From sequence record PZ386953.1: a stretch of 64,000 nucleotides of DNA. One strand, given 5' to 3'. The stretch is from a phage. A model generated the notes under the pieces. That model worked only from the letters and a program-made list of their open reading frames with translations. It was not told the origin of the DNA and did not search any database. Shown piece after piece: positions 10,821 through 47,100 of the stretch. Every line of letters begins with the position of its first letter. Position 1 is the first letter of the stretch. The position numbers and the translations under genes are program-made.

Positions 10821-11441
10821 ATGGCATGGTATGAAGATGAAGAGATTATCCCGTCACCGCCTAACCATGATGGTGTAGTCGATACCCCAGAAGAACCACC
10901 AAAAGAAGATCCTGTACCTCCGGAACCTGATCCAGACCAACCTCTTATTAATATTATGAGGTTGTTGCTTGGCAATGTTGATGAGGAAACCCTCCCTGAT
11001 GAGGTAATTAAAACATTCCTTGACATGGAGAAGTTGAAACTAAATTATCCGGCAGATCCTGATAAGCTACCTCTACTTAAGTATAATGTGCTTGTGCAGC
11101 TTGTGCGGTGGCTGATGATGCAGGAAGTGTCCAGCGGTAATGCAAGTATAACTTCCCGTCTGGAAAAAATAGGTGATGAGACCATAGAGATTCGTGGTGG
11201 ATCTTCCTACGCCCAATGGAAGGATTTCCTTGATTGGCTGCTGGCACACCCAGACTATGTAGATTCTGAGCTAGATGCTTACAGCAGAATGATTATCATT
11301 GGTGGTGTTCGTGTAGACGAAGGAATTCGGGTTAAATTTAATGAAAACAGCAACGGACCGTTCGATGTCCAGGGGATTACACCTATCAGCGGTCTAAATA
11401 ACCAACCTCCTCGCCACCCAAGACGCAAACGCAGTTTTTAA
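10821..11441 (+). CDS. hypothetical protein (head-tail joining region)
   Basis: ATG 10821 in frame with track ORF 10764..11441, downstream of hairpin; Pro/Glu-rich N-terminus. Confidence 0.45.
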   Translation: MAWYEDEEIIPSPPNHDGVVDTPEEPPKEDPVPPEPDPDQPLINIMRLLLGNVDEETLPDEVIKTFLDMEKLKLNYPADPDKLPLLKYNVLVQLVRWLMMQEVSSGNASITSRLEKIGDETIEIRGGSSYAQWKDFLDWLLAHPDYVDSELDAYSRMIIIGGVRVDEGIRVKFNENSNGPFDVQGITPISGLNNQPPRHPRRKRSF

Positions 11442-11447
11442 AAATTG

Positions 11448-11476
11448 TTGCTTTTGATGTATCTTTGTGGTAAAAT
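11448..11476 (+). promoter_or_regulatory. sigma70-like promoter TTGCTT-17-TAAAAT with TGG extended -10
   Basis: -35 TTGCTT 11448-11453, spacer ending TGG, -10 TAAAAT 11471-11476. Confidence 0.45.
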
Positions 11477-34633: not shown

Positions 34634-34662
34634 TTGACTATTGTTACAAAATTTGGTAAAAT
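34634..34662 (+). promoter_or_regulatory. sigma70-like promoter TTGACT-17-TAAAAT with TGG extended -10
   Basis: -35 TTGACT 34634-34639, spacer ending TGG, -10 TAAAAT 34657-34662. Confidence 0.55.
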
Positions 34663-34695: not shown

Positions 34696-36186
34696 GTGGC
34701 TAAGTATGGATTGACAGAGGCTGGTTTCGTTATACCAACCCTAAATGACCTAATCGTTGAAACTAAGCAAAGCCTGATCCGTGCTTTTGGCGAAAACTTC
34801 AACGTACAGAGTAACTCCGTTGCAGATAAGCTGACCACTATCTTCAACGAGCGAGAGTATCAACTTATTCTTATGGCAGCATCTGTATACGCATCACAGA
34901 CGCTGTATGGGGCAGAAGGTATTTACCTGGACGAACTTCTTGGAAGACAAGGTATTTACCGAAGAGGCCGTTCTAAATCATCAGGTACCTGCCAGTTGAC
35001 GATCAACACAACTGTGCCGTACAATATGATTTATGATTCCAAAACTTATACGCTGGATAGTGGCAACTTTGTTCTTAGCAATGATGTGCAAGTGGCAGGG
35101 AATCTTATTGCCCACAGAATAAATGCTCCAGACCTAAGGATTGGTAAATACAACTTTCAAATTACCAACCAGACAGATGGAAGTATCAAAACAAAAAGTT
35201 TGGTTTTAACAGATAAGGCTCTGGACTCTTCTGATCTGCCAAGCTTTTACGGAGAGATTAAGCAATTCATTGTCGATAATACAACCCTGTTGAACGACGA
35301 TTTGATTCAGATCGATATGTTGACAGGAACGTTGTGGATAGGGTACAATTCGAATCTTGATCAAGTTGGACTTAATAGTAGGGTAGATTTCAGAGTATCC
35401 CCGATTGTAGGGGAAAGAACCATCACCCTGGATGTTATCGCTAACGAGGCTGGTGAGCTGTCAAGAGAGGCAGAAACCGTGACAACAATGTCACCTACTC
35501 CCAGTGGATTTATCAAGCTTACCAACCGCGAAAGATTCAACGAGGGCAGGGATGTTGAGAAAGATTCCGAGTATCGCTTAAGAGCTTCCAGCACTAAACA
35601 GTTAACATCGAAGGCTACCCGTCCTGCAATCCTTAGCGCGGTAAGCGAGGTGAAAGGTGTTGAGAAAGTGAGAGTGTTCTCCAACAACACCGATAAAACT
35701 GATGCTAAAGGTATACCTCCTTACAAGTTCCAAGTGGTTGTGTTTGGTGGTGCAACGGAGGACATTTGCCAAGCACTTTACCAAACTATAGCCTGTACGA
35801 ACAGAACTTATGGTAATATTTTCTACGATGTAACTACATCTGACGGTCAAACTGAAAGAATTTATTATTCCAAGGCAAATACCTACCGCCTGGATGTAAG
35901 AATTACCTACTCAGGTGCTGCGCTTTCCACAACCGAAAAAGATGCCATTGTAGAGGCTCTTTTGCAGGTTGTTAACGGACTGGATGTTGCAGATACGTTG
36001 TACAATATCCAATTGGTTGGTGCTGCATCTGCTGCTGTGTCGATAGGTAGATTTAATAGACTGGTAATTCAAGTTAAACCTGTGGGGGCTTCTGATGAAG
36101 CTTACACTGCAAACGATATTGTTGCAAACATGACCGAGGTGTTTGACCTCGATGAAAGTAATATAACTTTCCAACAAACTATTTAA
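34696..36186 (+). CDS. tail/baseplate structural protein
   Basis: 496-aa ORF, GTG start with GGAGGAG SD. Confidence 0.45.
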   Translation: MAKYGLTEAGFVIPTLNDLIVETKQSLIRAFGENFNVQSNSVADKLTTIFNEREYQLILMAASVYASQTLYGAEGIYLDELLGRQGIYRRGRSKSSGTCQLTINTTVPYNMIYDSKTYTLDSGNFVLSNDVQVAGNLIAHRINAPDLRIGKYNFQITNQTDGSIKTKSLVLTDKALDSSDLPSFYGEIKQFIVDNTTLLNDDLIQIDMLTGTLWIGYNSNLDQVGLNSRVDFRVSPIVGERTITLDVIANEAGELSREAETVTTMSPTPSGFIKLTNRERFNEGRDVEKDSEYRLRASSTKQLTSKATRPAILSAVSEVKGVEKVRVFSNNTDKTDAKGIPPYKFQVVVFGGATEDICQALYQTIACTNRTYGNIFYDVTTSDGQTERIYYSKANTYRLDVRITYSGAALSTTEKDAIVEALLQVVNGLDVADTLYNIQLVGAASAAVSIGRFNRLVIQVKPVGASDEAYTANDIVANMTEVFDLDESNITFQQTI

Positions 36187-36197
36187 GGCGGCGAGAT

Positions 36198-36884
36198 ATG
36201 GCAGAGATTAAGTCGGATGTTAACCACATCCACACTCTGCCAGATTTTGTTCAGGGAGGTCTTGACTACCTGCCTGGAGATTTTCTGGCTGAGAAGGTTA
36301 ATTTAGTCACATTCTTAACCGTGTACCTTAAAAGGTTGGAGGATGTTGATAAGATGCTGGTAGGTTTGGCTGAAGGAAGATTGCTTAATAATGCCAGCGG
36401 AAGATACCTTGACGAAGTTGGTAATCAACTCGGTATTCTTAGGAATGGACTTTCAGATGCTGATTTTCGTGCCACACTAATTATTCAGCAGGCCGCAGCA
36501 TCAAGGGGCGGGACTCGCGAAGATGTCATCTCCACCTTGCGACAATTGTTCGGAAGAAACAATTTCGATACGTGGAAAGGAGACAACTTCAGGTTTGACA
36601 TAAATATTAGAAAAACTTGCTTTGACATATTGCAGTCTATTGATCAGATCTTAGACATGCTACCACTGCCTTGTCATTTGCGTCTTACAGAATCGCAAGG
36701 GCAAGCTTTTGGTTTTGAAGGTGACTCTACAGCTCTTGGCTTCGGATCAGTGTGGGAAGAAAACCAATTCGGAGTTGGTGGGCTGGCTACTTTGCTGTAT
36801 GTTCCTGACGTAAGACCTGATTGGGACACCACAACCATTTATTGTGAAAGTATTACAGTAAACGCAACTAGACAGGAGGGTTAA
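36198..36884 (+). CDS. tail/baseplate structural protein
   Basis: 228-aa ORF with AAGG SD. Confidence 0.45.
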   Translation: MAEIKSDVNHIHTLPDFVQGGLDYLPGDFLAEKVNLVTFLTVYLKRLEDVDKMLVGLAEGRLLNNASGRYLDEVGNQLGILRNGLSDADFRATLIIQQAAASRGGTREDVISTLRQLFGRNNFDTWKGDNFRFDINIRKTCFDILQSIDQILDMLPLPCHLRLTESQGQAFGFEGDSTALGFGSVWEENQFGVGGLATLLYVPDVRPDWDTTTIYCESITVNATRQEG

Positions 36885-38956
36885 TGGCAACAGCTGTTTT
36901 TAAACCTTACCGTGATTACTCTACAATGGCTGCACGGTTTCATTACCGCACAGTTCAGGATACTGCCGTTCCTGGTAGGGATTATGATCATGTTGAGGGC
37001 GATATAACTATCCCAGTTGGGGCAACCAGTATTGAAATCCCAGTGGAAATTGTTGACAAATTACCCAACAGGTTACCAAGAAGCTTCTTTATGGAGTTTT
37101 CATCAAAATCTCAAGGGGTGATGATTGGGACACAAAGGGCGAAATGTACAATAGTTTCAGATGAGAATCTTGACAGAATATCTTGGGATACTGTCGAGGA
37201 GAGAATGTTTCACCCAAGATATTGGGTTACAACCACTCAGCAGACTGAAAGTACCTGTATTGTTGCAGATGACAACTGTTGTATTAACCGTTTAGTGTCA
37301 AGAACATATGGAGGTATGGCTGGGTGCATTTGGGAAACAGTTGACAAGTATGACCATTTCGGTATTGGGTTTGATGATCACTATGAGATGAGAAACACCA
37401 AGCTTTGGTTCAGAATGTCAATAACCAATGCCAGCAACTTCTCCACTCCTGAAAAGATGATTATGACTGTAGACCTTGTTGATGGTACAATCATCTATGT
37501 TCCTTTAGCTCAATATGCTGTCAGCATCTCAGAGGATAAGAATGTTGCAGAGATTCATATTGATTTCGAGGACTGCGTCGGGATGGATCAGAACAACAAC
37601 ATGATGGGTGTTGATCCTCGACAGGTGAGAAGAATTTTAATACCGCTCATGCCTAAAGACTGGGTAAGTAATAGCACAGACCCGAGAACGGAAAATGTAG
37701 AGTGTGAGTTGCGCCTAGATCTGCTTCAGCCAGACACGGGCTGGAAAATGATGCAACTTAACAATATTCAGGTTAAAGAGCACGACGTTGGGATCTGCAC
37801 CGCATATGACGATATGTGGAACGTATCTCCTTTAAGGGTGTTGAACAATATCAAGCGTCTGGGCTATACCGGAACCATAAACCATTATGTTGGTATGAGT
37901 CATTATTATGACTACACATGGTCAGGAACCCAATGGTCTATAAACAGAACAGGAGCGCTAAACGCTGCAGCTTATAAATGGCATGATGATTTTATGTACA
38001 ATGCCAAACGACATAACTTCGACGTTATGCAATCTGTAAGTTTTGAGCTTTTCAGCGATGCCTGCCCGTTGGAATGGACCCAAAGAGACTGGAACGATAA
38101 CTACGCTAAAACAGGGTATACACCTTGTAGCTACCTCCTGTCTCCAACCATTGAAGAGGGTATGAATTTCCTTACTGCAGTATTTAAGAATTTTGCATCA
38201 GCCGCTATGAGAAACAACCTGCCAGTGATTATGCAGGTTGGTGAACCGTGGTGGTGGTACAATACCGATACTCGTAGACCTTGTATTTATGATTACCCTA
38301 CAAAACAGGCGTTTTATGATGAGACAGGCGAGTATGCCTTAGATATTGGGACTATTGACGATCCTAAAACTGGAGGTGTTTACGACAAGTATGTAGCATT
38401 TTGTCGTGGTAAGCTTGGCGCTCGTATTGCGGCTATTTCAAAGGCAATAAAGGCACACGCTGCATCAGCTCAGATGACAGCTCTGCTGTTTTTCCCAACC
38501 ATTATGGAAACCGAGCTTACGCAAAAGCTTAACCTTGCTGACCAATATAAAAAAGAAGCAGGCGCTCTTGATTTCTTCTGCACTGAGTGCTACGATTGGG
38601 TGATGCAGGGAGGTATTGAAAAGGCAAAAGAGTCTGTAAACATACCTATCGTTAAGTTAGGTTGGCAACCGTCTGAAATACAATACCTTGCAGGGTTCGT
38701 TCCTAGTAAAGAGCTTGCTCCGGTATATGGATACGACCCAACTAGGAATTACCAAGAATTTTTATGGAGATGTATTTGCGGAAACATGGCAACTATAGAG
38801 TATAGATACCCTGAGGTAAAACAGTATGTGTGGGCATACCCGCAAGTAATGTCTGACAGCATCACTGTTACCGCTAGAGATTCTACCGTGCTTCATATGG
38901 GGCAGGTTGCTCTGAAAGGGTATGTAGAAGATGTTGTCCCGCCAGACTTCTCATAA
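36884..38956 (+). CDS. tail protein with N-terminal Calx-beta-like domain
   Basis: 690 aa; N-terminal HYRTVQDTAVPGRDYDHVEGDITIPVGATSIEIPVEIVD fits the Calx-beta motif pattern by eye; start overlaps upstream stop. Confidence 0.45.
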   Translation: MATAVFKPYRDYSTMAARFHYRTVQDTAVPGRDYDHVEGDITIPVGATSIEIPVEIVDKLPNRLPRSFFMEFSSKSQGVMIGTQRAKCTIVSDENLDRISWDTVEERMFHPRYWVTTTQQTESTCIVADDNCCINRLVSRTYGGMAGCIWETVDKYDHFGIGFDDHYEMRNTKLWFRMSITNASNFSTPEKMIMTVDLVDGTIIYVPLAQYAVSISEDKNVAEIHIDFEDCVGMDQNNNMMGVDPRQVRRILIPLMPKDWVSNSTDPRTENVECELRLDLLQPDTGWKMMQLNNIQVKEHDVGICTAYDDMWNVSPLRVLNNIKRLGYTGTINHYVGMSHYYDYTWSGTQWSINRTGALNAAAYKWHDDFMYNAKRHNFDVMQSVSFELFSDACPLEWTQRDWNDNYAKTGYTPCSYLLSPTIEEGMNFLTAVFKNFASAAMRNNLPVIMQVGEPWWWYNTDTRRPCIYDYPTKQAFYDETGEYALDIGTIDDPKTGGVYDKYVAFCRGKLGARIAAISKAIKAHAASAQMTALLFFPTIMETELTQKLNLADQYKKEAGALDFFCTECYDWVMQGGIEKAKESVNIPIVKLGWQPSEIQYLAGFVPSKELAPVYGYDPTRNYQEFLWRCICGNMATIEYRYPEVKQYVWAYPQVMSDSITVTARDSTVLHMGQVALKGYVEDVVPPDFS

Positions 38957-38968
38957 TCAGGAGATAAA

Positions 38969-40009
38969 ATGTCAAAACCTAGTTTTCCATTAGAGATTTG
39001 GGCAGAGGAGGATCAGGTTCTGCCTAACACCCACAGACAGAACAGGCTACGCCCGATTGATGATTTGTGGAGAAAAGGTTGGGATCTTGGTCAAAAGCCC
39101 TCATGTGAAGAACTTAACTATATTTTCAATATGCTCGGAACTTGGGCAAAATATATTGCTGACGAGCAGATCCCCGCTCAAGAAGGCCGTTATCTGGTAC
39201 GCGATAATAACTTGAGTGATCTTTTGAACATTCCTGTTGCCCGTAGAAACCTTGGGATTATTACTAAGGAAGAGGCAGACGCCAGATATGTAAAAGTTAC
39301 AGGTGATACAATGACAGGCCCACTGGGTTTGCAACGTATCAACTTTAAAGCTGCCGAGACAGATAAGGCTTGGATAGAGACAACTATTGGCCCAGATAAG
39401 ACAACTCTCGACTTTGGGTTAAGTGATAATACCGGGTCGTTTGATGATGGTGGTACATCTACAGTAGATGCGTTCCGTTGGAGATTCCAGCCAACTCAGC
39501 CGGATATTAATCCAGAGTTCACTTTGATGTACCTTAACGCGATCACGGCTAACCGTGCGCTGTTGAAAGTGGTAGGCAATGTTGAAGTTGTCGATAACAT
39601 GAGGTGCAATAACCTTACTATCAGCAATACAGCAACATTCACCAACTGTAATGTGGCTAGTCAGTTGACGGCTGGGTCAGTATATGTTAATGGTGGTGCA
39701 AGTTGTGACAGCATGGTTGTAAGAAGCCAGCACTGTGTTGTCGGTAACAGAAATGTGGTGCGCTCTGTGAATGGGGTGACGGCTAACGGTAACGGTGATG
39801 TAACAATCACTATCCCGCAGACAGGTGTGCAAGACATCAGAATCGGTGCAAGACTTGTTGACGGCGTTTCTGAATCTCCAATTCGCAACGGCTACGTTGT
39901 CACAGGCTGGCATTTCGGTGACAAAAAAGAGATGCGTGGTTCAACCTACTGGGCAGGACCTTTACAAAAACTTGTAAATGGTCAATGGATCACTGTTAAT
40001 TATGCATAG
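38969..40009 (+). CDS. receptor-binding tail fibre, paralogue A
   Basis: 346 aa; paralogous over its length to ORF 41024..42067 (shared N-terminus M-x-KP..PL.IWA, central FRWRFQP...LNAITANRA, C-terminal QKLVNGQWIT). Confidence 0.55.
   Translation: MSKPSFPLEIWAEEDQVLPNTHRQNRLRPIDDLWRKGWDLGQKPSCEELNYIFNMLGTWAKYIADEQIPAQEGRYLVRDNNLSDLLNIPVARRNLGIITKEEADARYVKVTGDTMTGPLGLQRINFKAAETDKAWIETTIGPDKTTLDFGLSDNTGSFDDGGTSTVDAFRWRFQPTQPDINPEFTLMYLNAITANRALLKVVGNVEVVDNMRCNNLTISNTATFTNCNVASQLTAGSVYVNGGASCDSMVVRSQHCVVGNRNVVRSVNGVTANGNGDVTITIPQTGVQDIRIGARLVDGVSESPIRNGYVVTGWHFGDKKEMRGSTYWAGPLQKLVNGQWITVNYA
39965..39994 (+). repeat. 30-nt segment identical to 42022..42051 (3' end of fibre paralogue A)
   Basis: CAAAAACTTGTAAATGGTCAATGGATCACT read identically at both loci while flanking DNA is diverged. 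Confidence 0.8.
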
Positions 40010-40023
40010 ATCGGAGGACTAGC

Positions 40024-40608
40024 ATGAAAATACTTCAAGAGTTTAAACTTTACCAACCGGGATCTGGCGAATACCACCCTAACAAGGGAACCAAGGAGCT
40101 GACCCCTCAAGAGGTTGAGGATTACACCGCATACACTGGGTATTTTTTACGTAATGATGATGGCGATTGGTATGTGCAGTCACGAACATTACGACAAGAA
40201 AATCCGGGTTGTATCTTCCTACTTGTTGACGAGAAGGGAATTCTTAAGACATCTACAGAAGAACCTGATGCCCTATGGCCTGCTCCAGGTCTTCGTGTGG
40301 TTATCGCCAAAAAAGAAGAGGTACCAGAAAACATTATGCTTCACCACGACGCTTTGCGTTTAGTTGGTGATGAATTTGTCACAGACAATGAATTCTTTGT
40401 TCAACAGGCAGAGGGTGTCATAGAGACAGAACTTGCTTGGGCTACTGCTAGAATTGGTGCCTATCAAGACATGATTGACCTTGAATATGATCTTACTGAT
40501 GACCAGAAACGTAACATCAGAGATTTGAAAATGTACAGGGTAAAACTTCTTGAAATAGATACATCTAAAGCCCCTGACATTTTCTTCCCGGAGCGACCTA
40601 CCCTCTAA
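40024..40608 (+). CDS. hypothetical fibre-associated protein (possible assembly factor)
   Basis: 194-aa acidic ORF with GGAGG SD directly after fibre paralogue A. Confidence 0.45.
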   Translation: MKILQEFKLYQPGSGEYHPNKGTKELTPQEVEDYTAYTGYFLRNDDGDWYVQSRTLRQENPGCIFLLVDEKGILKTSTEEPDALWPAPGLRVVIAKKEEVPENIMLHHDALRLVGDEFVTDNEFFVQQAEGVIETELAWATARIGAYQDMIDLEYDLTDDQKRNIRDLKMYRVKLLEIDTSKAPDIFFPERPTL

Positions 40609-40619
40609 GAGGAGGTGTT

Positions 40620-40934
40620 GTGGAGTTGGATTTGGCGGCATTGTACGGTATCTGCATGGGTACCGTTGTCCCGATCTGTGTATGGGCTTTCAACCAGTGG
40701 CACACCAAATGGAAAGGCATTTCCAAGAGGTTGGATGAACTGGAGAAAGACCTCATCTTAGTGAAAAACAGTATGGTTACAAAAGATAAACTTGATTCTA
40801 TTATCGAGACCCGGTTAAGCAAGCTAGAGGCCGATATTAACGACCTTAAGCAGGATGTTAGGACAGATGTCTCCGGCATCAGAGCTGATGTACAAAAGAT
40901 TTTGCACATGCTTGTAGAGCATAGTAAAAGGTAA
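40620..40934 (+). CDS. small membrane protein (N-terminal TM helix + coiled coil)
   Basis: 104 aa; hydrophobic LAALYGICMGTVVPICVWAF then charged helical region; start codon uncertain (GTG 40620 sits too close to SD). Confidence 0.4.
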   Translation: MELDLAALYGICMGTVVPICVWAFNQWHTKWKGISKRLDELEKDLILVKNSMVTKDKLDSIIETRLSKLEADINDLKQDVRTDVSGIRADVQKILHMLVEHSKR

Positions 40935-40939
40935 ACAAA

Positions 40940-40963
40940 GGTCAGGACGGAAAGGACTCCGTT
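40940..40963 (+). terminator. hairpin, weak terminator-like
   Basis: GGACGGA-AAGGAC-TCCGTTC stem-loop after ORF 40620..40934, without a clear T tract before the promoter. Confidence 0.3.
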
Positions 40964-40964
40964 C

Positions 40965-40993
40965 TTGCATTTTGTTCACTAAAGTGTTAAAAT
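40965..40993 (+). promoter_or_regulatory. sigma70-like promoter TTGCAT-17-TAAAAT
   Basis: -35 TTGCAT 40965-40970, 17-nt spacer, -10 TAAAAT 40988-40993, upstream of fibre paralogue B. Confidence 0.5.
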
Positions 40994-41023
40994 AGTCCTA
41001 AGGAATTTTCTCAGGAGAACGTG

Positions 41024-42067
41024 ATGACTAAACCAGTTATCCCTCTTGATATTTGGGCCAATCAGGATGTTGTGCTTGAAAATACGGGAGAATTGAATAA
41101 GTCCCAACCAAAAAAAGAAGAGAGACTGAAAGGTTGGGATATGACACAAAGAGTGGCATGTGAAGTTGTTAACTTTGAACTTCACATGCTTTCTGCGTGG
41201 TTAAAGCATTTAACAGAAGATGTTGTCCCAGGATGGGATAATAGATTCTTAAGGGTCACTAATAATCTGGCAGACGTTCCAGACAAAGCTGCTGCACGTC
41301 AAGTTCTCAATGTATACTCGCCTGAAGAAATGGATGACCTTTATGTTGACAAGGCTGGAGACACAATGATCCAGACTCAAACTTTAGGTCTTCAAAGAAT
41401 CGAGTTTGCATCCGCGTCAACAGACAATGCGGCGATATACACCACCATAACTTCAGACAAGACGATGATGGATTTCTGGATTATGGACAACATCGGTGGT
41501 GCTGACGGCACAGACCTTGATGATCCCTCTCACCAAATAGACGGTTTCCGTTGGAGATTTCAACCTTCTGGTGGGCAGCCTGTGTTTTCAGCTATGAAGC
41601 TCAATGCTATAACTGCCAACCGTGCAAGACTGGCTATCCAAGGAAATCTTGAATGCAACGACGCAAAAAGTTCCTCTGCAAATGCCAATGCAGCTACGAT
41701 ACCAAGAGCCACTGTTAATGGACAACAATCCTGTGGAAGCGCTCAAATAGGTGGAAGAGTTGATTGTAACGATGAAACCGTCAGGGGCCAATATGCAACA
41801 GTTGGTGGAAGAAACGTGGTCCGCAGGGTAAATGGTAACAGCGCAGACGGTAGTGGTAACCTTACTATCCCTATGCCCAGCAGAGGGGTTGATGATGTGA
41901 GGATAGCAAACCGTTTCAAAACCACCTACAGAGAGTCAAGAGTCTACCCTGGACATGTGATGTGCTCGGGTAACTACGCTTATAAACACCCTTATCAAGG
42001 TGATTACTGGACAGGTGCTATCCAAAAACTTGTAAATGGTCAATGGATCACTATATCTTATGCTTAA
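41024..42067 (+). CDS. receptor-binding tail fibre, paralogue B
   Basis: ATG 41024 with AGGAGA SD; N-terminus MTKPVIPLDIWAN parallels paralogue A; own promoter. Confidence 0.55.
   Translation: MTKPVIPLDIWANQDVVLENTGELNKSQPKKEERLKGWDMTQRVACEVVNFELHMLSAWLKHLTEDVVPGWDNRFLRVTNNLADVPDKAAARQVLNVYSPEEMDDLYVDKAGDTMIQTQTLGLQRIEFASASTDNAAIYTTITSDKTMMDFWIMDNIGGADGTDLDDPSHQIDGFRWRFQPSGGQPVFSAMKLNAITANRARLAIQGNLECNDAKSSSANANAATIPRATVNGQQSCGSAQIGGRVDCNDETVRGQYATVGGRNVVRRVNGNSADGSGNLTIPMPSRGVDDVRIANRFKTTYRESRVYPGHVMCSGNYAYKHPYQGDYWTGAIQKLVNGQWITISYA
42022..42051 (+). repeat. 30-nt segment identical to 39965..39994 (3' end of fibre paralogue B)
   Basis: Same 30-mer as in paralogue A, encoding QKLVNGQWIT. 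Confidence 0.8.
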
Positions 42068-42078
42068 AAAGAGGGTAA

Positions 42079-42345
42079 ATGAAACTAACTCAGTTTTTAT
42101 GGGGACTGGTTGCGGCATCTGATGACCCTACGAAAGTGTCCCAATCTAAGCTATGGTCAAACATAGGTATGGCGGTGATGACTGGGGTGTTTATTCATAT
42201 GGGGTATAATGATACGCTTCCTGAATGGTATGCGTGGATATATGCGCCTTCGGTAGCTTGCCCCCAGCTTATTAGCAAATTCATCTCGCTCCGGTGGGGT
42301 TGCCAGCACCCTGACCACGTTAAAAACGAAGAGCAAAAAGCTTAA
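42079..42345 (+). CDS. small multi-pass membrane protein (holin-like or exclusion-like)
   Basis: 88 aa with 2-3 hydrophobic segments and charged C-terminus; AGAGGG SD; directly after fibre paralogue B. Confidence 0.45.
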   Translation: MKLTQFLWGLVAASDDPTKVSQSKLWSNIGMAVMTGVFIHMGYNDTLPEWYAWIYAPSVACPQLISKFISLRWGCQHPDHVKNEEQKA

Positions 42346-42354
42346 GGAGAGATC

Positions 42355-44100
42355 ATGGCGCAAGACATGACAAGCTTTGAGCAGGCGGTAGATCAAGTAA
42401 TTGTTGATTCTGAACGTTTGCACCTGATTGTCAACGGTAACGCTGTGGATGAGGTTGTCGTAGAGGATGGGACCACCATCCCTACGGTACGAAAAGCCAT
42501 GCTTGACACCCTTTATTTTAAAACGCCGCCGATCCCTTGGGCGTATGGTGCATCCACAACAGTTTTTAACCAGCTATATGAGTTTAAAGGGGACACAGGG
42601 CCCCAGTGGTGGTACGCTCCCGCAGCATCAAAATCTAACCCGGTTAGAATGCCAGCAGATCCTTCACAATCCCCAAACTGGAGATTATATACTGACTCTG
42701 CAGTAATGGCAAAATACTATGCAAAACTTAACAGCCCAAGGTTCGAAGGTGACCCGCGAGTACCTACACCTCCAATGGACGATAAGTCAGAGTCTATAGC
42801 AAACACAGAGTTTGTTGTTGACTATGTTGATAGTATATTTAAAGCCATGGAGGGGATGAAAGTTACTGTAGGATCTTTGGTGGTGAAAGGTCTTACAGAA
42901 CTCGCTAACACCATAGTTGGTGGCACCCTTACCTTACATGGACCTGTTAATGGGGCAGATTCTACTGCACGCTTTAGGAATCTAATCCTCACGGCAAATA
43001 CTTCTACACTTACTTTTGCGTGGAGCGATCCTAAGCATGCAGACTGGAGAAGTACAGAGCTGCAACCTCATGAAGTGTCCACCCACAGGGTTATAGCTGA
43101 CACTATAACTTCTGGGAAACCAGTGGCTAATAATAACGATGTACATTTTGATGGTCTGGGTAATAACTTTTTTGACTACGTGTACATTCGTGGTAATGCC
43201 ATGAAGGCAGCAACCGAACCGACATTGCAGGTCGATGGGACCACCAGGGTTAAGAACCTTGAGGTGACAGGTACCGTTACAGGGATAACCTACTCTGTTG
43301 ATGGCACCATGATCTACCCTAGCTATATTGAAAGCACGGGCGATGCATTGATAAACGGCGATTTGGAGGTTGGCGGGTCTGTAGTTATCCGAGGTACAGC
43401 CTCTATCCAAAATATAGCTCTGAATACTTTAAGAGTCAATGAGCGTGCAACTTTTGAAGGAGAAGGGCTTACAGCCAATAAAGGTACAATTACTGAGCTG
43501 ACCACCACCACTTTAACTGCAACAACTGCAAACTCTGAAAACTGCAACATTACCAGAAACTTGCAGGTAAATGGAGATGTTAGTTTAAACGCCGCAGGGA
43601 CTGGCACCACCTACCTTCACAATCTTGAAATATCCGGCACAGTGACCGGATGGCTGCCAGACTTCTCTAATGTCAACTTTGTCTGTAATGGTATTAACTC
43701 CAGTGGTAAGATAACCACCTCTCAAGAAATTGAGGCTGGTAAAACCATCACTGCCCCTACTTTCCACGCAGGGAAGGTAGATTTCGATTTAGAGGAGGTT
43801 GACGCGTCCAGTGGGACATGGACACCTAACGGGCAGGCCAGTATGTATGTTGTCCACGCTAAAGGGGATTTTACAATAGGGCAGTGGCCTGGGACATCAG
43901 CGGAAGATAAACCTTATCCATTTACTGCGGTTATCTATGTAATTCAGGATGCTGTAGGTCACAACGTGACTTTGCACGATAAGTATGCTATCCTGTCGGC
44001 AACACCTGTTATTAACAACAAGGCTAACAGTGTTACCTTGCTGCAATTAACGTATTGTGGTGTTGGTGATATCGTAGATGTAGTAATTGCACAACGTTAA
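42355..44100 (+). CDS. tail fibre protein
   Basis: 581-aa Thr/Gly/Asn-rich fibre-like protein with AAGGAG SD. Confidence 0.5.
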   Translation: MAQDMTSFEQAVDQVIVDSERLHLIVNGNAVDEVVVEDGTTIPTVRKAMLDTLYFKTPPIPWAYGASTTVFNQLYEFKGDTGPQWWYAPAASKSNPVRMPADPSQSPNWRLYTDSAVMAKYYAKLNSPRFEGDPRVPTPPMDDKSESIANTEFVVDYVDSIFKAMEGMKVTVGSLVVKGLTELANTIVGGTLTLHGPVNGADSTARFRNLILTANTSTLTFAWSDPKHADWRSTELQPHEVSTHRVIADTITSGKPVANNNDVHFDGLGNNFFDYVYIRGNAMKAATEPTLQVDGTTRVKNLEVTGTVTGITYSVDGTMIYPSYIESTGDALINGDLEVGGSVVIRGTASIQNIALNTLRVNERATFEGEGLTANKGTITELTTTTLTATTANSENCNITRNLQVNGDVSLNAAGTGTTYLHNLEISGTVTGWLPDFSNVNFVCNGINSSGKITTSQEIEAGKTITAPTFHAGKVDFDLEEVDASSGTWTPNGQASMYVVHAKGDFTIGQWPGTSAEDKPYPFTAVIYVIQDAVGHNVTLHDKYAILSATPVINNKANSVTLLQLTYCGVGDIVDVVIAQR

Positions 44101-44108
44101 TATATCTA

Positions 44109-44134
44109 ACCGCTCCTGACGGGGCGGTTTTCTT
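44109..44134 (+). terminator. intrinsic terminator
   Basis: CCGCTCC-TGAC-GGGGCGG hairpin followed by TTTTCTT. Confidence 0.55.
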
Positions 44135-44148
44135 ATCTGGAGAACACA

Positions 44149-47100
44149 ATGCTTCCAATCCCTTTGCTAAAACTTGGTCGTCATTTCCTCGATAAGAGGG
44201 GTGGAATTAAGGAACTTGCTGTTCTGTCATACCCAATAGACAACAGTGATGGTACAAGCAATACAGTATCCTATGTAAATAGCTTAGCTATACTTTTTGA
44301 TGATGGTCAGCTTAATATTACTGGTTATAATAGGTTCGGAGAGTGTCGGACTGGAGATCTTGATACAATAAACTATCCTAATGAGGCAGCTTGGAACGTA
44401 GACCATGTTTGGAGAGCTGACCGTGCATTTGTAATCCGCACATTCGATAATAAATTTTTCTATATTGGTTGCACAGCTGGTCTTATCGGATCGGAGGCAG
44501 CAGGTGGAAACGATGTTTGTGTCAGAGAGTGGACACCTTTGCCGGAACAGATCGTAACAGGGTTGCATTTGGACACCCATCCTGAGAGACTTGTTGAAGT
44601 AATGGGTGGCGTAAACAATACAGTGTGGGTAATTGCTGCACCAGAGGCTGATGGTATGCTTCACCTGTACGGCTCTGGCAATAATACTTACGGCTCTCTT
44701 CATGTTGACAAAAATCAACACGCTACTCCAGTTAAGATTGGTGAAACATCTGAAAGTCCAGAGACAGGTCCTTGGAAAAACCCAAGAATTAATTGTGAAG
44801 TTCATGACAACTCGGTTATTTTTGGTGGTCCTAACGGATTCTGGATTGCAGGTTACGATTTCTTAAGAAATAACAGCAAAAACACACTAATTTATCCAGC
44901 CGAGCATGCGACTCTTGACCAGTTTAAAGGCATCTCGGTGGGCGAGACATGGAAAGGGTTTATGTGTGGACCTAATGGTGCAATTATAGCCACAGAAAGG
45001 ATGCACAAACCTGATGACCAACAGCTTGTTAATGTGTTTTATGGTCAGGATGTTTGGGGTGACGACACGTGGAGAAGCCTTAACATCACCTATACCCATG
45101 AAGTAATTATGGCTCGCGGGTACGGGACTAGTGGAATTTTCTTCAATAATGGTACAAAACAGTACCGTGGTTTCTCCAGAAACCTGTGTAACGATATTGG
45201 TGCTCAATCTGCTAATAATAATCCTAGGGCCAATTTTATTCATTACAGAGCGCTGGCAACAGCTAAGTTTGTTGAACAGACAGAGCCAGTAAGCTGGACA
45301 GAAAGCGTTTATTTTCAAGGGATCCACAGGGAAGGTTTCTTAGGCACATTCTGTGTGGTAAATGGAAAGCTTTGGTGGTCAGGTATCCCAAGGGGCAGTT
45401 TTTCAGGCTCTAATAACCTGTTCGGCGGCAGACTTAACAGCCAAGGGTTCACAGAGATTCCTGAGAATTGGTATAAAAATGTTCCGGTAGATAGCTGGAG
45501 TATCGAAGACATCTTTGATGTCAATGGTGTAAGCAGTGTTAGCAATATATACATTGGCGACACTGTCAAAATGAAGTTGAAACCTCAACCGGAGGGTGCT
45601 ACGTTCATTATTGACAAGATTGAGCTCGTGAACGCTGCAGGTACTGTTGTTACAGATGCAAACTATCAGTTCTCTACTAGCTGGAACCATGGCGGTGCTA
45701 ACGAGGTTGTGGTTACCCAGCATAACCGTAACATCAACAGACGCGGTCTGTATTCTGTCAAGATCACCTATCATGATAAACATGGCGCTGGAAGAACCCA
45801 CACCACACGAAACTTAAACTGGAACATTGTAGTTCCTGCATATCCGTCAGACGGCAAATGGCACACTGTTGGCAGGAAGAAACAGTTCCATGTAAACGAT
45901 ACTGTATACTTTGGGCTTAACGGCTCTCAGCCTGCTCCAGAAAGCGATACAGCATATATGGTTAGGCTTCACAGGCAAGATGCCGGATCTACCACGTATG
46001 ATGTGACCCAGGAGATCTACGACCAGAGACGCAGTATCTATGACAATCTTGTGAAAACACAAGCCTTGTGGGAGTTCAACCCTAACGGCAAAGGCGGGAA
46101 GATGCTGCAGGTTAACGAGCAGAACGGAACATCGTTAACAGTGCACGAGCATGCTGATCCATGGCCTGATCCTGGTAAGCCTAACCCAGGTGCTCGCACA
46201 CTGAAAGTTGTTAGCCACAACGCAGGGTATTTCGGGATACGTTGGGAAGCTACAGTAAAATATGTTGATGGAACAACAAACAATATAGGTATTACTCTGG
46301 GTGGTACCAGTGAAGATAGTTCTCTGAAAATTGCCTACACCCCTAGAGGCATCTCTATTGACAATATGGATATAGTTCGTAACGGTTACGGTGATGTAAA
46401 CATCAAAGTTACCCTCGGTGAACATCTTGGTGGAGAAAGGATCATCATGTATGCCTTTGACCATGATCCTCGCACCAATGGAACCTATGCAAATCAGGCG
46501 TGGAGTTACCTGATAAATGCACCTGAGCCAAATACTAAAGAGTTTTATTATGGTATGAAGCGCGATGTGTGCAAGAAAACAGGAACACATGACTGGATCG
46601 CTATCTGCGTTAAAGATGAGCGGACAGCTTGGGACGAGCCTGTTAACAGATGGTTCATAGGAATCCCAACCAGAAGTGATAAATATGTCACAGAATATAT
46701 TGTGTGCATGGGCGGCACCAACCTGAACCTGTGTTGGAACGAAGATGCAAACAAATATTCCGATTATGACTATATGAGAGATATCTCTTGTAATCAGTGG
46801 TTTAACCAGACTACAGGTTACCCTCCGCGTCAGGCGAGAGTAAACCCTGCAATCTTCACAGATACGCAGGTTTTCTTGACAAAACAGGCCAACGAGGTTC
46901 AGACCTTCAAGAACAAATACGACCCTAACAAGTGGTTTTATAACTGTTATGGCGCATTTTTCTGGGGTCCGGGGGAACTACCTAACGGGGGATCTTGCTT
47001 CGAGGCTGCAACCTATGGCAGCGACTATATTATGGGGCAAGTCAAGAAATACAAAATGATCCCTGGTCCTGAAACCCTGGGTAATGCTGTTGACCCGTAT

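Follow-up and report, generated by a model that had tools for sequence, protein, structure and literature searches.

We analysed a stretch of phage DNA 64,000 nucleotides (nt) long (sequence record PZ386953.1, hereafter the window), in which two related short tail fibre genes, lying between positions 38,969 and 42,345, end in an identical 30-nt block. The window belongs to the genus Vequintavirus: its locus is 98–99.6% identical at the nucleotide level to more than 100 genomes, including those of rV5, MiataMamis and the BASEL phages, and its gene order matches the rV5, JohannBauhin and Gotham records, with the fibre genes downstream of the baseplate wedge genes and of the gp34 fibre gene. On the plus strand, the locus comprises gp33, a short tail fibre referred to here as fibre A (38969..40009, 346 residues, phrog_4465); gp32, a Tfa chaperone (40024..40608, 194 residues, PF02413, phrog_136); gp31 (40620..40934, 104 residues, GTG start, phrog_5345, a family of unknown function); a terminator-like hairpin of 8 pairs with a T-rich tail (40944..40965), which closes the gp33-gp32-gp31 unit; the late-promoter motif TGTTAAAATA, equivalent to rV5 P030 (40985..40994, 30 nt 5' of the gp30 start codon); gp30, the second short tail fibre, or fibre B (41024..42067, 347 residues, phrog_4465); and gp29 (42079..42345, 88 residues, phrog_1322). 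A further fibre protein, gp28, is encoded at 42355..44100.

The short-tail-fibre module found here, that of an rV5-like Escherichia coli myophage, has been published before; the rV5 segment gp33-gp32-gp31-P030-gp30-gp29 is the same locus, at 98% nucleotide identity. In rV5, gp30 and gp33 were described as 42.3% identical and as T4 gp12-like by HHpred, both fibres and gp32 were detected in virions, and two lipopolysaccharide (LPS) chemotypes were proposed as the targets of gp30 and gp33 (Kropinski et al., 2013). The BASEL paper named the pair as short tail fibre paralogues, accompanied by a chaperone with homology to Mu GpS and GpU, found the fibres to be without considerable allelic variation, and gave both the phi92-like phages and Phapecoctavirus a single short fibre (Maffei et al., 2021). 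The terminal receptor of rV5-like phages is reported to be an LPS core sugar, with the short tail fibres as its proposed binders. The accessible parts of Kropinski et al. (2013) and Maffei et al. (2021) mention neither the 30-nt identity, nor the position of gp30 relative to an ORF of 157 residues found in related genera (see below), nor conversion between the paralogues. A search of the full-text literature on gene conversion between tail fibre paralogues returned, besides the BASEL paper, nothing on this locus.

The two fibres are homologous over their full length (43% amino-acid identity, E=4e-95; 52% nucleotide identity in a codon alignment), in agreement with an initial annotation, made from the sequence alone, that had called the open reading frames (ORFs) at 38969..40009 and 41024..42067 paralogous. 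The PHROG 4465 profile spans residues 1-346 of fibre A (E=1.8e-171) and residues 1-347 of fibre B (E=1.7e-164). Both fibres show 98–100% identity to GenBank Vequintavirus proteins, and both are more than 94% conserved across ~117 genomes. For residues 1-108 of fibre A the match is to phage phiTE, over a segment of its short tail fibre (PDB 9cuy, E=1.4e-19) that was modelled by cryo-electron microscopy bound to wedge protein 1, and residues 286-343 match residues 440-501 of Mu S (PDB 5yvq, E=1.7e-6; E=2.2e-4 with the tip alone). By these matches, fibre A consists of a baseplate-wedge docking domain (residues 1-108), followed by a shaft and a Mu-S-type tip (residues 286-346). Fibre B aligns to fibre A through the tip and into a common terminal motif; it has the same domain plan and a divergent tip. 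This motif, P-[LI]-Q-[KY]-x-[VI]-N-G-x-W, is found again in phiTE, in S and S' of Mu, and in the fibres of Av-05, Seunavirus and Phapecoctavirus. Fibre A occupies the position of the single fibre in Av-05 and NINP13076. The phiTE short tail fibre (PDB 9cuy/9mjn) shares with the window fibres the ~108 homologous N-terminal residues and a similar C-terminal motif, PIQKKVNGVWVTI; unlike them, it is 554 residues long, with a predicted coiled-coil shaft and immunoglobulin-like domains, and the paper on it describes one short fibre.

The initial annotation had each fibre closely trailed by a small membrane protein. Fibre A is instead followed by gp32, a gene which that annotation had missed and which starts 14 nt past the fibre A stop codon (PF02413 Caudo_TAP, E=1.3e-11; phrog_136, E=3.6e-36), and only then by the ORF of 104 residues. 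Across all the tblastn matches listed, Tfa occupies one place per Vequintavirus record; fibre B is followed by gp29 instead. Because each genome yields a single detectable Tfa gene, we infer that gp32 serves both fibres, via their common C-terminal region. The literature on the binding of Tfa to tips and on trimer assembly concerns Mu and Pam3.

Phage Mu swaps two tips by site-specific inversion, and each of its tips has its own Tfa. The window resembles the Mu system of S/S' with Tfa U/U' in its homologous tip and in the C-terminal motif PxQKxxNGxW, which is common to S and S'; a further likeness to Mu U is the Caudo_TAP chaperone encoded directly downstream of a fibre gene and present in the virion (gp32 in the window, virions in rV5). 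Unlike Mu, the window carries two whole fibre genes in direct orientation with one Tfa, and the products of both are found in rV5 virions. An invertible tip switch of the Mu G or P1 C type was considered and rejected: the 30-nt block repeats in direct orientation, 36000-46000 contains no notable inverted repeat, and the flanking genes, all annotated as fibre or baseplate genes, include no annotated invertase.

Each fibre gene carries the block in frame, as the codons CAA AAA CTT GTA AAT GGT CAA TGG ATC ACT, ending 12 nt before the stop codon and encoding QKLVNGQWIT (39965..39994 in fibre A and 42023..42052 in fibre B, both on the plus strand). The perfect 30-nt repeat reported by the initial annotation is real and its first copy was placed exactly; the second copy, given as 42022..42051, was off by one. 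The block lies within a longer repeat of 62 nt at 84% identity (39947-40008 / 42005-42066), and the next-longest identical runs between the two genes measure 14 and 12 nt. Where fibres A and B share a degenerate residue, they use the same codon in about 33–37.5% of cases; silent sites outside the block thus look close to saturation, and against that background the identity of the block stands above chance. With independent codon choice and local codon usage, a match at all 9 degenerate block codons has P=1.4e-4; a gene-wide permutation gives P=0.003 for the silent-site run of 10 seen in the window. The nucleotide identity of the block exceeds amino-acid constraint at a level that is modestly significant and not overwhelming. 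The block peptide is an ancient feature of the tip: its motif persists as far out as Mu S and S', and its amino-acid identity therefore reflects an old structural constraint of the tip fold.

Exact matches of at least 28 nt to the block occur in 108 of ~117 GenBank Vequintavirus records, at 175 places in all. Both copies are exact in ~67 of the 117 genomes (~57%), one copy in ~41, and neither in 9, which indicates that the identity drifts without strong selection; a single exact copy is thus found in 41 of the 108 matching records, and covariation of the block within genomes was not seen. Two relatives, L009 and L014, retain 28/30 and 26/30 identical positions between A and B in the block, with one copy altered only, and L008 likewise shows a block change in one copy only. 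The silent-site run permutation is not significant in L009, L014 or L012. Amino-acid changes in the motif all fall in copy B, a T to A change in L008 (QKLVNGQWIA) and an L to F change in L014 and L019 (QKFVNGQWIT); copy A shows silent block changes only in the loci examined. IMG/VR was also scanned for every back-translation of QKLVNGQWIT. A fibre gene on L015, a 42-kb IMG/VR contig that looks unrelated, ends in RPIQKLVNGQWITVGQL at 11194-11222, written in quite different codons (CAGAAGTTAGTTAACGGACAATGGATTACA), and it illustrates the peptide motif travelling without nucleotide identity.

Viral and metagenome contigs were scanned for relatives of fibre B, and further IMG/VR and JGI/ENA scans added few genomes. 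The relatives include a sister clade of uncultivated phages, known solely from metagenomes and represented by IMG/VR and metagenome contigs of 86–141 kb (L012, L017, L021-L024 and L028-L031), for which megablast found no match among GenBank phages and tblastn at most 45% identity for copy B. Gene order in the sister clade is as in the window, the hairpin and promoter are conserved, and fibres A and B are ~75% and ~45% identical, respectively, to those of the window. Homologues of gp31 at 84–86% identity bear E. coli names at NCBI, which hints at E. coli as the host.

Within the sister clade, sequence comparison demonstrates gene conversion between fibre genes A and B. From the N-terminus through the middle, the proteins cluster by paralogue (A/A 73–75%, B/B 44–57%), while over the final ~60 residues they cluster by genome (A vs B 84–97%). 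In L017 and L021, A and B share an identical run of 59 nt, with 19 consecutive silent matches (P=5e-5). The A-tip alleles of seven sister-clade genomes form a graded series, P-A-S, P-A-G, P-Q-G and A-Q-G, of which the last is the B state; such graded B-like alleles in A point to conversion tracts of differing length. In all of these genomes (7/7) the tracts stop short of the last 36 nt, where A and B carry 9–11 silent differences and zero amino-acid differences. This free variation at the silent sites of the terminal codons shows that they are under no constraint at the nucleotide level. In the longest tract (L021/L030), the identity reaches the invariant CAGAAACT at the start of the block, and the 3' edge lies there in L017/L021 also. 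A CTT variant is common to both copies in L017 only.

We consider the 30-mer of the window to be, probably though by no means certainly, a lineage-specific footprint of gene conversion between gp33 and gp30. Non-reciprocal homologous recombination would have copied tip-end sequence from one fibre gene to the other, leaving a short homogenised tract that was present already in the ancestor of the genus and that sits atop a deeply conserved peptide motif. Because homology ends at the stop codons, the conserved terminal codons are the last stretch over which the two fibre genes can pair, and they mark a limit beyond which no sister-clade tract goes. Since the sister-clade tracts vary in length and the longest stops at the block start, conversion is to be preferred to a dedicated swap site.

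Several observations weigh against a conversion origin for the window's own block. Its permutation P is only 0.003, and neither mosaicism nor conversion is visible among the ~117 close relatives that represent the window's genus. Sister-clade copy B also contains the block core, GTAAATGGTCAATGGATCAC, as does the outgroup Av-05 for the most part, so that part of the identity may be retained ancestry. Further, the terminal 36 nt are the unconverted part in the sister clade, whereas the window's clade would need a tract that includes them. Two points bear on the wider picture of the locus: the use of gp32 by fibre B is deduced solely from the missing second Tfa gene, and fibre B may have arisen as a duplicate or been acquired horizontally, its N-terminus being nearer to Seunavirus fibres than to fibre A.

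The chief rival to conversion is that the codons were simply kept from an ancestor. The block would then be the slowest-evolving stretch of two old homologues, kept identical by ancestry and chance and without recombination. Such an origin accords with an amino-acid motif conserved out to Mu S, with the presence of most of the same codons in Av-05 and in sister-clade copy B, with the decay of the identity through single changes in relatives, and with a permutation P that is no smaller than 0.003. It is harder to reconcile with the near-saturation of silent sites elsewhere (33–37% same codon), with a codon-usage probability of 1.4e-4, and with sister-clade copy A, which differs at most of the degenerate block codons while encoding the same amino acids; moreover, conversion between these very genes is demonstrated beside the block. 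We give retention a limited but real chance of being the whole explanation.

The initial annotation had taken the block for a recombination or gene-conversion boundary at which receptor-binding modules are swapped. Conversion does take place, in the sister clade; the window's genus is without mosaics and the block is not maintained. The strong form of the proposal, in which the 30-mer has been selected as a site or boundary of recombination for swapping receptor-binding modules between cassettes or between phages, draws on the same sister-clade tracts, which never enter the last 36 nt and of which the longest ends where the block begins. It also draws on tips of ~60% identity that are carried by otherwise different fibres of Phapecoctavirus and of ~52-kb Salmonella phages, as a modular tip would be, and on the tail fibre adhesins of T-even phages, in which recombination is reported to fall inside conserved motifs or close to them (Tetart et al., 1996, 1998, cited by Trojet et al., 2011). 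The likeness to the T-even adhesins is that tracts in the window's group stop short of the conserved terminal codons, with the longest ending there. The T-even exchange, however, takes place between phages, whereas here it involves two homologues of one genome, and in the sister clade rather than the window's genus.

Other features of the block are at odds with a swap site. It is not identical in ~43% of genomes, mosaic fibres are not seen within the genus, and an upstream partner of comparable identity is lacking, the next runs being those of 14 and 12 nt. The 3' regions of both fibre genes are without a nucleotide match in 5,426 complete E. coli genomes (blastn, 11-nt words), a result on which recent exchange with E. 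coli prophages was also rejected. Because the repeats are direct, a crossover between the two copies would delete Tfa, gp31 and most of gp30. With an identity that decays freely, a genus without mosaics, and a crossover that would remove the chaperone gene, a selected site is an improbable account of the block.

We also considered that the block might be a functional element at the nucleotide level, such as an RNA structure or a regulatory or translational signal of both genes. Copy A can form a local hairpin at 39957-39983 (GACCUUUACAA/UUGUAAAUGGUC), partly within the block, with z=-2.5 over 91 nt. This hairpin, however, relies on flanks found only in copy A; the folding of copy B does not stand out from that of shuffled sequence (z=-0.86), Rfam gives no match at E<=1, and the silent sites vary freely in the sister clade and in several relatives. 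We judge such an element very improbable.

Returning to conversion, we raise as a tentative and rather speculative idea that the terminal ~12 codons serve a dual purpose: at the protein level they could be the C-terminal strand by which the single Tfa (gp32) initiates trimer folding in two fibres whose tips otherwise differ, and at the DNA level the last homology anchor for tip copying. If this is true, the phage could either diversify its short fibres, as in the window's clade, or homogenise them, as in the sister clade.

The gene for the second fibre appears to be an insertion with its own expression signals. The initial annotation had proposed a promoter of its own for this gene at 40965..40993. 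No sigma-70-type promoter was found 5' of gp30 on the plus strand; what stands of the proposal is the late motif TGTTAAAATA at 40985-40994, a variant of the rV5 late-promoter motif that is listed as P030 in Table S4 of Kropinski et al. (2013). The late-promoter motif has 5 matches in the window, all on the plus strand, against 0.39 expected; exact copies, TGGTAAAATA, lie at 11468, 14989, 29143 and 34654, all on the plus (coding) strand, and the copy at 34654 is 33 nt 5' of the start of a baseplate wedge gene (34696). P030 is annotated as a promoter in phage Gotham, and its form in the sister clade is TGCTAAAATA; there, a shorter hairpin stands in the same place, with the TTGCATTTTG tail conserved. 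The hairpin and the late promoter, both predicted elements, lie in the 89-nt gap 5' of gp30.

By synteny, the hairpin, promoter and gp30 occupy the exact slot of a membrane ORF of 157 residues in single-fibre relatives. In Avunavirus Av-05 and in Seunavirus NINP13076 and LNA4, the order of genes is fibre, Tfa, a gp31 of 104 residues, the 157-residue ORF, a gp29 of 87–89 residues, and a gp28-like fibre. The ORF (L004 5449-5922, L005 5461-5934 and L006 5497-5970; Av-05, LNA4 and NINP13076) has four hydrophobic segments and overlaps the gp31-like gene by 4 nt at that gene's end. The 64-kb window contains no homologue of it, and searches of Pfam, NCBIfam and PDB returned nothing significant for it.

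The N-terminal domain of fibre B is 49–50% identical to Seunavirus fibres, as opposed to 38% to fibre A in the same genome, and fibre B branches outside the group formed by fibre A and the fibres of the single-fibre genera. A tblastn search of 50,697 phage records for a donor of the fibre B tip found none above 48% identity outside the genus. Fibre B could be an old duplicate or an acquisition from a related phage; both fit. Taken with the synteny, these relationships suggest that gp33-gp32-gp31 is the ancestral unit and that gp30 is a second, anciently diverged homologue. Lambdoid morons are extra genes with a promoter and terminator of their own. The arrangement at gp30 is moron-like in that the gene is extra relative to the sister genera and is preceded by a predicted terminator hairpin and its own promoter within an otherwise tight operon. 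Unlike a moron, gp30 encodes a late structural protein of the virion of a lytic phage, not a fitness gene expressed in lysogeny, and it replaces another ORF rather than being a pure addition.

The small neighbours of the fibres, gp31 and gp29, had been described in the initial annotation as membrane proteins, each paired with one fibre. As to their topology, the description holds for gp31: a single clear transmembrane segment lies at its N-terminus (residues 5-23), after which come a basic stretch and a helical domain resembling a coiled coil, and an N-out/C-in anchor is suggested by the positive-inside rule. The description is not confirmed for gp29, which is highly conserved but only weakly hydrophobic, with no window of 19 residues reaching 1.3 on the Kyte-Doolittle scale. 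The two proteins have no sequence similarity to each other, and sequence searches of Pfam, NCBIfam and PDB gave nothing significant for either. The label 'DUF2644' on one gp29 homologue was not reproduced by a Pfam scan of that protein. In the mass spectrometry table for rV5, tryptic peptides of gp31 and gp29 are unmatched, but so is a gp30/gp33 peptide, and the table is hence uninformative.

In all relatives examined, gp31 follows Tfa, with orthologues in this position in Av-05 (34% identity, E=5e-22) and in the Phapecoctavirus tuntematon (21%, E=4e-8). The gp29 family spans 374 phage records, from Vequintavirinae, Phapecoctavirus, Certrevirus and some Aeromonas phages, one of them annotated Phi92_gp144. 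Tuntematon has an annotated membrane-protein gene upstream of a wedge gene and not beside the fibre, a gene compared with gp29 by annotation only. Homologues of gp29 in the sister clade and in other metagenomic relatives (L012 10789-11169; P0004-P0013) extend the C-terminus by 30–40 residues, many of them Tyr, Ser, Asp or Arg (e.g. YSDDRYSDNRWPEYSDSRYSE...RR), beyond a core of 75 residues that is nearly invariant.

A cassette of one fibre with one membrane protein is contradicted by synteny, given that gp31 and gp29 are unrelated and that both occur in the single-fibre genera in the same order; the one fibre-specific partner at the locus is Tfa. Because they are unrelated and present in single-fibre relatives, gp31 and gp29 predate fibre B and are not partners of particular fibres. 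They are better described as older, conserved genes of the fibre and baseplate region.

The genes for Llp of T5 and for Cor of T1 and phi80 lie beside those for the receptor-binding proteins. This precedent and the transmembrane anchor of gp31 are what speak for the proposal that each fibre has a cognate factor for superinfection exclusion or receptor masking, in the form of gp31 and gp29. The two proteins, however, are unrelated and share their order with single-fibre phages, being present with one fibre or two and with differing tips, and gp29 extends to 374 phage records across several groups. Both genes lie in a region with late-promoter motifs, no N-terminal lipoprotein signal was found on reading the gp31 and gp29 sequences, and an LPS core sugar is not a receptor that a small inner-membrane protein would readily mask. 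We regard an exclusion role as very unlikely.

A lysis role is also unlikely, if less so. The idea here is that gp31 or gp29 or both, together with the ORF of 157 residues in relatives, are the holin and antiholin of rV5-like phages, comparable to T4 gene t, which follows gene 38. Both proteins are small and apparently expressed late, gp31 has one transmembrane domain, and in some lineages of the gp29 family the C-terminal tail is variable and charged. But the endolysin, gp89, is encoded elsewhere and the spanin genes adjoin the terminase gene; gp31 is predicted to lie N-out/C-in with a cytoplasmic helical domain, and gp29 is weakly hydrophobic; and neither matches a holin family in Pfam, NCBIfam or PHROGs. 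Nothing here supports a lysis role for gp31 or gp29. Because both genes are kept within the baseplate and fibre region across genera, a morphogenetic role is suggested instead.

Upstream of fibre A, gp34 (36884-38956) contains the TIM barrel of an N4 gp65-like 'non-contractile tail sheath' protein (PF23845, E=4e-80), as well as that protein's N-terminal domain and a Calx-beta domain. It is the probable counterpart of the deacetylase fibre described in the literature as targeting glycans, namely the enterobacterial common antigen (ECA) or the N4 glycan receptor (NGR). Separately, 16–21 GenBank records of the MG0656xx series, named 'Campylobacter phage' with Campylobacter jejuni as host, are 98% identical here to E. 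coli rV5-like phages; the naming looks like host misattribution or contamination.

What is new at this locus is the conversion of tips between paralogues in an uncultivated sister clade and the placement of gp30 together with its promoter; otherwise the analysis is incremental. It adds a further example of recombination at conserved tail fibre motifs, already known from T-even phages, and it corrects the tempting reading in which each fibre has one membrane-protein partner. rV5-like phages are common, broad-host-range E. coli phages that are considered for therapy and biocontrol. For the engineering of their host range, it matters that one chaperone gene accompanies two fibres, that fibre B is a separately promoted addition, and that tip-coding sequence can pass between fibre genes by conversion. 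The findings suggest that the exchangeable part of a tip runs from about residue 300 as far as the conserved codons at the end, and that the terminal motif is probably best retained in any replacement.

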